Below are positions 21,001 through 24,000 of a stretch of DNA of 48,597 nt, one piece after another. Made by a program: the position numbers. Origin of the DNA: a virus (Duplodnaviria > Heunggongvirae > Uroviricota > Caudoviricetes); IMG/VR virus record IMGVR_UViG_2879742664_000003; one strand, given 5' to 3'. Within the stretch, counting starts at the first letter, position 1, and every line of letters starts with the position of its first letter.

Positions 21001-24000
21001 AGTGGAATCGACAAGATAACCGCGCAGGTCAACTACCTGCAGGAGTACATCAGGACGCAGTGCTTAAAATAATTTTAATTTCACTGAAATTTAATACGTG
21101 ACTTTCAGGAAAATGCCTCGCAGATGCGGGGCATTTTTGTACAGGTATTTCACCGCGCACCGCAGTGCACTCAACCACGTCGAACCAAACCCTTTGGAAT
21201 GAGCCTTTGAGTAGTCAGTTAGTGCTGGTGAGCCTTGACGGGCTGATCTCCTATGCAGCAAAGGTTCATCTCAAAGTAAGGCGAACGCTATGACAAACCA
21301 AGATTCTATAGACCTATCTGATCTTCGTGGAATGGTCAGTTTTCCAGACAAAAGGTAATCACCATAGTCGTATGGCTATGAATCTTGTTGCTGCAGATAA
21401 GCATTTTGTGATTGAAGTGGTCAAATCTCTCAAATGCAGTAAAATGCAGTGCGCTATAATTCAATAACGGAGGGAGTAAGGAGAAGTCATGAAAGATCAA
21501 GATGTTAGGTTCGCGGTGCATCATAAGCTTTTGAAAGAATCGCATTTAGATCCAGACTGCCTTGTGGTCGATGAATTTTCCATATCCCTTGGCGCCAGTA
21601 GAGCAGACATTGCTGTAATAAATGGTGTTATACACGGGTACGAGCTCAAAAGTGAATATGACTCTTTGGAGCGTTTGCCTCTTCAAATCAAGCATTATTC
21701 TTCTGTAATGGACAAGGTTACTCTTGTCGTAGCTGAGAAACATCTTGAGGGAGCATTAAAGTTAATCCCAGGTTGGTGGGGCGTTAAAACGGTTTCTGTT
21801 GGGCCAAAAGGCGCCATTCTTATAAAGCACATGCGTGGAGAAAAGCTTAATCGAAACCATGACACATTGATGCTCGCTCAATTGCTTTGGAAAGATGAAT
21901 GTATCGACGTACTTGAACGATGGGGCTATTCCAAAGGAATCAAAAGCAAGCCCCGATTTGAGTTATGGAATATTATTGCGGAAAATATTCCAATAGCGAA
22001 TCTCAGGCTTGAAGTCAGAACAGCCTTAAAGAAACGCGTAGGCTGGAAAGTTAAGGCTTGGCAGGCTGAGTCTGCGCCAACCAATAAAGCTGTCTCACGA
22101 CTAACGTAATATGGTGCGTATGTGCAACTTTACGCCATTCTTTAGAGCCGCCAGATTTGTTAGCGCCTAATGATCTTTGGTAAATGTAATCATCCCCCCA
22201 ACTAAATTTGGAACCAAAGACTTGATACTCTGGCGAACTAACAAGGGTAGTACATAAGTTTTTAGTTTGGCCCCATCCATTTCCTTTAACTGCGGTACCT
22301 TTTACAAAGATCCATGAGGTATCGTTCGAATATCTCACTGAGACATACTGAGACATGAAGCGTGGGTCTACGCTCGTAATGGTAGAGCTAGCGGTGGGAT
22401 AATCACTAAAACTTGGCGTTCTTCCATTGCTAAAATTCTGTACTACGTACATCCAAAGATCGTATTCATGGCGCGGAATATGATGAACTTGATGTTGCGG
22501 TATCCCTGCCTGTGATGCTGGGTATGCGGTTGAAGATAAAATCAAGTTTCTCCACGGAGCTTGGCCTGATAATGTGTTGACCATGCTTAATGCTTGTTGT
22601 TTTAAACTATCAGTTGCGTTTTGAATATCTCCAAAATCAATGATTACATCAATTAAACTAGGATGAATATTTAAGTGGTTAACCAGACTTGTGAATTGGT
22701 GCCATGTCTGGGGGGTGATAGATATAGCGAGCCCATTGATTAAGTTGCGTTGAACAGCATGTATATAGTTTGTTGAATATGCGGGAGAAACAACAGGGAT
22801 AATTTCCTTACCATTTACTCTAGCATCTTGGATACACATATCTAGAGGATGATGGCGGCTCGAACCATGTTTATCTAAATATTTAACATCCAGCAAAACA
22901 GGACGATTGGCTTTCCAGGATGCCGCAAGGTTAATACCGAAGTCAGATAAGTAAGAACTCAAACTCTTCTTGTAGCATTCGTTTTCATAATCCCAGTCTA
23001 TGTCTGGAATGGTAATGATCGGAGTAAAACCAGAGAGCGTAGTTTGATCTAAAAGCATCAGAGATTCATATTCAGCAGGCTTCCATTTCAGCTGTGGATA
23101 ATATTGATGTTGACTCATTAAAACTCCTTAAAATCTTTACTTATCCTAAGTATAGTGTTATGGCGTAACGCCAATTGTTTTTATACACTTGAAAACATTG
23201 GGAAAAGTTGAGCTATATCTAAATTTACAAAATTGGATGTTATAGAAATCGAGGTTTCAACTAGGCATGGAACTGCAAAATTTTTAATGCCTGCACGCGA
23301 AAGTCGTTGGCGGGTCCTTTCCGGTGATCCAGACCGTTACGGGGCGGCGACCTCGCGGGTTTTCGCTATTTATGAAAATTTTCCGGTTTAAGGCGTTTCC
23401 GTTCTTCTTCGTCGTAACTTAATGTTTTTATTTAAAATACCCCCTGAAAAGAAAGGAAACGACAGGTGCTGAAAACGAACTTTTGGGCCTTTGTCGTTTC
23501 CTTTCTCTGTTTTTGGCCGTGGAATGAACAATGGAAGTCAACAAAAAGCAGCTGGCTGACATTTTCGGTGCGAGTATCCGTACCATTCAGAACTGGCAGG
23601 AACAGGGAATGCCCGTTCTGCGAGGCGGTGGCAAGGGTAATGAGGTGCTTTATGACTCTGCCGCCGTTATAAAATGGTATGCCGAAAGGGATGCTGAAAT
23701 TGAGAACGAAAAGCTGCGCCGGGAGGTTGAAGAACTGCGCCAGGCCAGCGAGGCAGATCTCCAGCCAGGGACTATTGAGTACGAACGCCATCGACTTACG
23801 CGTGCGCAGGCCGACGCACAGGAACTGAAGAATGCCAGAGACTCAGCTGAAGTGGTGGAAACCGCATTCTGTACTTTCGTGCTGTCGCGGATCGCAGGTG
23901 AAATTGCCAGTATTCTCGACGGGATCCCCCTGTCGGTGCAGCGGCGTTTTCCGGAACTGGAAAACCGACATGTTGATTTCCTGAAACGGGATATCATCAA

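Follow-up and report, generated by a model that had tools for sequence, protein, structure and literature searches.

Two validated anti-phage defences of Escherichia coli, gop-beta-cII and PD-lambda-2, share a protein of the beta family, and here we describe a two-gene relative of them in a 48,597-nucleotide stretch of viral DNA (Caudoviricetes; IMG/VR record IMGVR_UViG_2879742664_000003), the whole of which is called the window below. When cloned, the gop-beta-cII genes of the satellite P4 protect against phages lambda and P1 (Rousset 2022, PMC9122126); the same study describes these genes as non-essential and gop and beta as a likely toxin-antitoxin pair. According to Ghisotti 1990, as cited in PMC9122126, Gop is toxic without beta, which is its antidote. 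The gop-beta-cII locus of ECOR59 kills the cell upon expression of the phage accessory gene orf184 (Silas 2023 preprint, 10.1101/2023.04.06.535777). PD-lambda-2 is an anti-phage system composed of a HigB-like protein A, an Xre-peptidase B whose toxicity A neutralises, and a protein C that is "related to a P4 phage antitoxin", dispensable for toxin neutralisation and required for defence (Vassallo 2022, PMC9519451). We found no fold or activity for either beta or cII in the accessible parts of the Rousset, Silas and Vassallo papers.

Judged by family profiles and position, the cassette in the window is a minimal, gop-less member of the beta/cII family, and a self-contained accessory ("moron") module in the slot between Rz and cos of a lambdoid prophage. 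Its two convergent open reading frames (ORFs), at 21489-22109 on the plus strand and 22051-23118 on the minus strand, had been noted in a preliminary description made from the DNA sequence alone, and both the frames and the 59 bp common to their 3' ends are borne out. The features of the cassette, in window positions, are as follows:

21489 to 22109, plus strand: cII-like / sce7726-family protein of 206 amino acids (aa), from family profiles and predicted structure
22051 to 23118, minus strand: beta-family protein of 355 aa, a TIM barrel with a C-terminal helical extension
22051 to 22109, unstranded: 59-bp overlap of the 3' ends of the convergent genes, with no space for an intervening terminator
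21395 to 21488, plus strand: conserved non-coding block, the probable promoter/operator of the cII-like gene, about 75 nt of which are kept across five genera
23124 to 23222, minus strand: upstream region of beta with its probable promoter, from an alignment of seven loci in five genera
21294 to 23303 (about 2.0 kb), unstranded: low-GC cassette with the two genes and their own upstream regions, delimited by GC content and by similarity breakpoints against lambdoid prophages

The 355-aa protein, to which the preliminary description could assign no family, falls over its full length into Pfam Beta_protein (PF14350, E 8.2e-56). It also matches phrog_9159 (E 7e-153), and aligns over its whole length with P4 beta, likewise of 355 aa, at 22% identity (BLASTP E 3e-7). 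The 206-aa protein belongs over its full length to NCBIfam sce7726_fam (NF033832, E 2.3e-54), additionally matches the PADLOC "cll" profile (4.3e-31) and phrog_984, and is 27% identical to P4 cII (BLASTP E 1e-18); the precomputed Pfam assignment of its homologues is PF26915, "Phage_P4_cII". The profile check suggested at the outset, covering sce7726/MmcB-like and Beta_protein families, was thereby answered with matches to sce7726 and Beta_protein. In titles and abstracts, sce7726 turned up in incidental mentions only, and nothing relevant was found there for PF14350 or Beta_protein. An identification of the pair as "sce7725/sce7726" was considered and dropped: the NCBIfam sce7725_fam profile, which we take to be that of the sce7726 partner, misses both the window's beta and five beta homologues, one of them from Sorangium.

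In P4, whose system PADLOC lists as "gop_beta_cll", gop (247-648, plus strand), beta (651-1718, plus strand, 355 aa) and cII (1746-2540, minus strand) lie directly beside the cos end. The window locus resembles this arrangement in having homologous beta (PF14350) and cII (PF26915 / NF033832) genes in convergent orientation, in adjoining cos with beta reading away from it, and in occupying a variable accessory slot of a temperate element. It differs in its carrier, which is a lambdoid prophage rather than a P4-type satellite, in the length of the cII-like protein (206 aa as against 264 aa), and in the junction of the two genes, which are 27 bp apart with an annotated terminator in P4 and overlap by 59 bp in the window. 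Furthermore, it is without gop, whose product, a small membrane-type protein, is the reported toxic component of the P4 system. A tblastn search of the window with P4 Gop gave only a chance match elsewhere (E 1.9), and the approximately 185 bp from the beta start to position ~23304 contain no ORF, so that no gop-like gene lies between beta and cos.

The comparison with PD-lambda-2 is similarly mixed. Among PADLOC profiles, the window's beta fits the two PD-Lambda-2_C profiles (4.4e-32 and 2.2e-25) better than the P4-derived "beta" profile (3.5e-10). However, no HigB-like or Xre-M78 gene stands beside it, and PD-lambda-2 as published is defined without a cII-like gene.

Pairing of the two genes extends well beyond the enterobacteria. 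We scanned one genome per species with an alignment of cII-like proteins, confirmed 389 stretches as encoding a relative, and kept the best 80 of these 389 loci. They come from Proteobacteria, Firmicutes, Myxococcota, Bacteroidota, Acidobacteriota, Elusimicrobiota, Melainabacteria-type bacteria and lineages of the candidate phyla radiation (CPR). In 77 of the 80, the cII-like gene is directly followed by a beta homologue in convergent orientation, and two of the three loci lacking it are truncated by contig ends. The third, in Xenorhabdus koppenhoeferi (locus L017), is the only one of 78 evaluable loci with a cII-like gene and no adjoining beta. Since the 3' ends overlap in 75 of the 77 pairs, by a median of 56 bp (range 11-158), the 59-bp overlap in the window is typical of the family and no accident. 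Divergence of beta and of the cII-like protein is correlated across loci (Pearson 0.80). None of the 80 loci contained a homologue of P4 Gop by tblastn.

Clustering of the neighbors of the 77 pairs returned a single recurrent association, with HigB-like and Xre-M78 genes, which lie upstream of beta and in the same direction in 11 of about 68 non-redundant loci. Where such genes occur they are readily picked up, as at locus L046, where the PD-Lambda-2_A and PD-Lambda-2_B profiles score 9.6e-41 and 1.8e-150, respectively. In the reverse direction, a search of metagenomes from PD-lambda-2B-like proteins found beta right after B in 48 of the 55 loci with enough DNA, and a convergent, overlapping cII-like gene in 36 of 51, in a sample biased by a query alignment that had been built from loci found through cII. 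Eight PD-lambda-2-like loci have beta and room downstream of it, and no cII. PD-lambda-2-like loci (L046, L054, L062, L066, L069, L079, L081, L083, L085-L087 and L094-L173) usually carry a fourth, cII-like gene that falls outside the published three-gene definition, the bias just named applying here too. Pairs of HigB and IrrE genes occur on plasmids without beta, and the HigB-IrrE module also stands alone. The beta family itself is large, with 3773 clusters at 50% identity (E up to 0.001); a scan of IMG/VR with beta yielded close relatives only, and gives no broad estimate of how often beta occurs without cII. Taken together, beta and cII look like the core, and gop in P4 and HigB with Xre-M78 in PD-lambda-2 look like add-ons.

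Structure prediction, in which each protein was modelled as a monomer, gives the N-terminal domain of the 206-aa protein a PD-(D/E)xK fold with a restriction-endonuclease-like alpha/beta core. This agrees with the D...(D/E)xK nuclease-like core that had been read from the sequence before. In 77-78 of 78 family members residues E29, D40, E52 and K54 do not vary, and because P4 cII is among them, the P4 "regulatory protein cII" is predicted to be an active nuclease as well. A helical domain (residues ~125-185) follows the core and is itself followed by a disordered tail (189-206); these last 18 residues are not conserved in the family and are the source of most of the gene overlap. Searches of the PDB by sequence, both single-sequence and profile-based, returned no solved-structure relative of the protein. 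Its closest known fold relatives are the MmcB-like / SPO1766 group of PD-(D/E)xK proteins (PDB 3dnx), Can2 and NucS. Compared with these, the 206-aa protein adds the C-terminal helical domain, always has a TIM-barrel partner (the Xenorhabdus locus apart), and has no CARF or other sensor domain fused to it.

The 355-aa protein is confidently predicted to fold as a (beta/alpha)8 TIM barrel, and again no solved-structure relative was found by single-sequence and profile searches of the PDB. Eleven polar residues (Y6, E16, D77, D161, R216, D239, Y240, Y263, S306, D309 and H336) are kept in at least 90% of 78 sequences from multiple phyla, a pattern consistent with enzymatic activity or with specific binding of a ligand. 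Pfam, NCBIfam and PADLOC profiles detected no methyltransferase or known DNA-modifying domain in either protein.

Each of the two genes is preceded by conserved non-coding DNA. Upstream of the cII-like gene, about 75 nt are kept in relatives from Klebsiella, Pantoea, Pectobacterium and Edwardsiella. This block, in which a consensus scan called one promoter-like site, contains TGGTCA-16-TAAAAT (21418-21445) and a TATAAT box (21455-21460) that is followed by a GGAG-rich Shine-Dalgarno (SD) sequence at ~21470-21484. The TATAAT promoter and SD attributed to the locus in the preliminary description are therefore present, and within conserved sequence, but the scan missed this TATAAT box and did not rise above chance in the window. 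Our assignment of promoters rests on conservation across genera and not on the consensus scan. On the other side, the SD of beta is AAGGAG (23124-23129), and the conserved block before it (23176-23222), which is kept in the same four genera, reads TTAGATnTAGCTCAA...TTTTCAGnnGTATAAAA (also written TTAGATnTAGCTCAA...GTATAAAA) and includes a TATAAA box at 23180-23185. Between this TATAAA box and the SD, positions 23161-23173 form a perfect 13-bp palindrome, TGGCGTAACGCCA, which is not kept in other genera and which the scan marked as a terminator-like site of the plus strand.

Each gene of the cassette thus probably has its own promoter. Since there is no space for a terminator between the genes, transcription of either one must continue into the other in antisense direction. 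From this we infer a regulatory coupling through antisense transcription, by which the tail-to-tail overlap may tie together the expression levels of the two proteins.

The boundaries of the cassette could be placed by composition and by comparison with other prophages. GC content is 0.403 in 21294-23290 as against 0.523 in the whole window, and none of 1704 non-overlapping stretches of equal size was as low. In other E. coli prophages, similarity to the flanks stops at ~21276-21293 and restarts at ~23304-23311. The AT-rich insert that had been drawn at 21140-23340 is indeed the lowest-GC stretch of the window, but its left end belongs to the flank, and the cassette proper spans ~21294-23303. 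The two flanks are:

21100 to 21293, plus strand: left flank outside the cassette, with a hairpin and T-run and a rha remnant (sequence reading and megablast)
23304 to 23353, plus strand: right flank outside the cassette, a lambda-type cos comprising a cosQ-like stretch and, at 23342-23353, the cohesive end GGGCGGCGACCT of 12 nt

To the left of the cassette lie the endolysin gene (19803-20336) and Rz (20635-21072), followed at ~21112-21140 by a terminator-like hairpin with a T-run, ATGCCTCGCAGATGCGGGGCATTTTTG, which was recognized by reading the sequence and was not listed by a simple terminator scan. To the right is a lambda-type cos, recognized by its likeness to the lambda sequence around GGGCGGCGACCT; Nu1 begins beyond it at 23531 and is followed by the large terminase gene. 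By megablast against P22-like phages, 21100-21293 is 85% identical to an internal part of the P22 rha gene ("Rha protein"), and looks like a leftover from replacement of a Rha-family gene by the beta/cII cassette. The slot between Rz and cos is variable, as related E. coli prophages hold a whole Rha-family gene, YlcI/YnfO or DUF1398 genes in it. The placement in a moron slot, between lysis genes and a lambda-type cos, can accordingly be retained from the preliminary description. As with lambda bor, the classical occupant of this position, the insert is autonomous and compositionally distinct, follows a terminator-like hairpin and has promoter-like sequences of its own; unlike bor, it carries unrelated cargo, two convergent genes instead of one lipoprotein gene.

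The 2.3-kb region is present at a coverage of at least 80% in 126 of 5426 complete E. coli genomes (~2.3%), while in most E. coli genomes related prophage flanks enclose different cargo in the Rz-cos slot. None of the deposited phage genomes in the collection that we searched carries the region at the DNA level. RefSeq names the two products "beta family protein" and "sce7726 family protein", and in the lambdoid phage Rac-SA53, where such a pair sits in another slot, annotators had already labelled its members "beta" and "CII phage-like protein". The locus can therefore not be called undescribed, as it had been: both proteins belong to curated families and have RefSeq names. The other part of that claim, a role in defence or superinfection exclusion, stands as the most likely function through the homologues discussed below.

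Close relatives of the window pair occur in varied surroundings. One adjoins a type I restriction-modification (R-M) system in Edwardsiella, another adjoins a prophage integrase in Vibrio, and a third lies between lysis and HNH/terminase genes in an unrelated Cronobacter prophage. In a series of IMG/VR loci (L174-L211) the cassette is 99-100% identical to that of the window and again lies between Rz and terminase genes, with Nu1 proteins that are 36-100% and large terminases (TerL) that are 54-100% identical to those of the window. Such near-identity of the cassette beside diverged Nu1 and TerL suggests that it is exchanged among lambdoid backbones.

As homologues of both proteins belong to validated anti-phage systems, gop-beta-cII and PD-lambda-2, we consider defence or superinfection exclusion to be the most likely function of the locus, and the balance tips slightly in favor of the cassette being an autonomous prophage-borne anti-phage module. 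With probable promoters of its own and a position behind the post-Rz hairpin, the pair could be expressed in the lysogen and would there protect its host from other phages, by superinfection exclusion or by abortive infection. The cII-like protein would be the effector, a metal-dependent PD-(D/E)xK nuclease whose helical C-terminal domain is probably DNA-binding. The TIM-barrel beta would act as its obligate partner, restraining or licensing the nuclease in the manner of an antitoxin-like controller or an infection sensor, possibly with an enzymatic activity of its own. We hold this division of labor, with a nuclease effector and a beta controller, with less assurance than the anti-phage role. 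A nuclease that is the dangerous partner would be expected to occur rarely without beta, and beta more often without the nuclease; such an asymmetry is seen, with one evaluable locus of the former kind and eight PD-lambda-2-like loci of the latter. The invariant catalytic motif of the cII-like protein and the setting of the pair in mobile accessory DNA also speak for this view.

Several observations weigh against this interpretation. We found no experiment on any gop-less pair in the literature, and the PADLOC profiles match components of the known systems only. The clone in which PD-lambda-2 was studied ends about 396 bp past gene C, which is too short for a whole cII-like gene, and therefore beta-type proteins can defend without this nuclease. 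The toxin reported for P4 is Gop and not cII, with beta as the antidote (Ghisotti 1990, as cited in PMC9122126), so that an effector role for the nuclease is something we infer. Convergent, separately promoted genes are an unusual layout for a toxin-antitoxin pair. When compared with solved structures, the TIM barrel of beta shows no clear tie to any one enzyme family, such as the TGT/DpdA transglycosylases. Neighbors of the 80 loci are mixed, including mobile-element, defence and housekeeping genes, as seen without a formal enrichment test. Finally, the promoter consensus scan of the window gave 3 sites where 5.8 were expected by chance.

A wider form of the anti-phage interpretation is possible, if on balance doubtful. 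In this form the beta/cII pair would be a real and ancient two-gene immune unit that spans many phyla including CPR, in which TIM barrel and nuclease cooperate and the overlap serves as a control; Gop, and HigB with Xre-M78, would be effectors bolted on in particular lineages, and the window would hold the bare core.

An alternative that we regard as improbable is a system of the R-M kind, in which beta would mark self (DNA, the nucleotide pool or some other target), the cII-like nuclease would cut unmarked DNA, and the convergent overlap would set the ratio of the two. The TIM barrel of beta with its roughly one dozen invariant polar residues is enzyme-like, as this would demand, and a nuclease almost never found without beta, next to a beta found without the nuclease, recalls restriction enzymes and orphan methylases. 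A convergent layout also occurs in some R-M systems. However, the profile searches brought out no methyltransferase or known DNA-modifying domain, so that the nuclease has no recognized modifying enzyme beside it as in R-M systems, and the relatives that have been tested act as abortive-infection or toxin-like systems.

It is also improbable, in our view, that the pair merely stabilizes the cassette or the prophage in the manner of a toxin-antitoxin module, with no part in anti-phage defence. The descriptions of gop and beta as a likely toxin-antitoxin pair (PMC9122126) and of PD-lambda-2 C as "related to a P4 phage antitoxin" (PMC9519451) speak for such addiction, as does the presence of a compact mobile cassette in many unrelated elements. 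Yet both tested relatives protect against phages, and stabilization and defence can coexist. Moreover, a type II toxin-antitoxin operon has co-directional, co-transcribed genes, whereas those of the window are convergent, each with a conserved upstream block; they probably have separate promoters and do not form an autoregulated operon.

Less probable still is a reversal of the two roles, such that the cII-like protein would sense a phage DNA structure and beta would be the effector enzyme, for example by destroying an essential metabolite or nucleotide. Beta is the component common to both validated systems, and the PD-lambda-2 clone in which it defends is too short to contain a whole cII-like gene. 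TIM-barrel enzymes serve as defence effectors elsewhere, one example being the RADAR deaminase. On the other hand, P4 beta is reported, in the work cited by PMC9122126, as protective against Gop and not as toxic, and the toxic component of PD-lambda-2 is B and not C (PMC9519451). The E-D-ExK tetrad, moreover, is invariant in 78 sequences, and would be unneeded for mere binding.

The cII of P4 was named after a plaque/lysogeny phenotype. A role in the phage life cycle, as a regulator of lysogeny or in DNA processing tied to the neighboring cos, which the pair adjoins in both P4 and the window, is nevertheless very improbable: the same pair is found in chromosomal settings outside phages, in bacteria of many phyla with CPR among them, and elsewhere in prophages; of 5426 E. 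coli genomes only ~124-126 have it, while most hold other cargo in the slot; and the P4 genes are described as non-essential (PMC9122126).

Several other features of the window were noted in passing. Three tRNA genes lie upstream of the lysis region at 15941-16190, tRNA-Met(CAT), tRNA-Arg(TCG) and tRNA-Arg(TCT), the first of which is named tRNA-Ile by RefSeq in a near-identical prophage. Between these genes and the holin, 17166-19019 (plus strand) encodes a 617-aa protein with DUF1737, SASA (sialate O-acetylesterase-type) and DUF6645 domains. In the early region, an 823-aa ORF (1479-3950, minus strand) ends in an Rv2179c-like 3'-5' exonuclease domain, and Pfam returns nothing for its N-terminal ~640 residues. 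Four ORFs of 150-200 aa (4013-4618, 4648-5256, 6037-6513 and 6952-7410) in the stretch 4000-7400, where GC content is ~0.43, have no Pfam or PADLOC match. A 221-aa ORF with a SAM-methyltransferase fold (46634-47299, minus strand) lies in a second low-GC patch; it closely follows the tail-fibre assembly gene and is encoded on the other strand, has no PADLOC match and is possibly another moron.

The cassette of the window is no orphan, since it represents an accessory module of prophages that already has a name and is moderately common, occurring in ~2.3% of complete E. coli genomes. Both protein families and their RefSeq names were known before; what is new is the gop-less, two-gene, lambdoid-borne form, and the view of the two-gene core as the widespread unit behind two published systems. 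The comparison suggests that the conserved unit consists of beta and a nuclease historically mislabelled as a "regulatory protein", in an unusual and strictly conserved arrangement of convergent genes that overlap at their 3' ends, and that the toxins known so far are optional additions. Should the bare pair prove protective, it would define a widespread two-gene defence family and would offer the simplest handle on its mechanism; if it does not, gop or HigB/Xre-M78 would be the true effectors, and beta/cII a regulatory chassis. Should beta/cII be the ancient core, the cassette described here would be the cleanest system in which to learn what beta-family proteins sense or catalyze.

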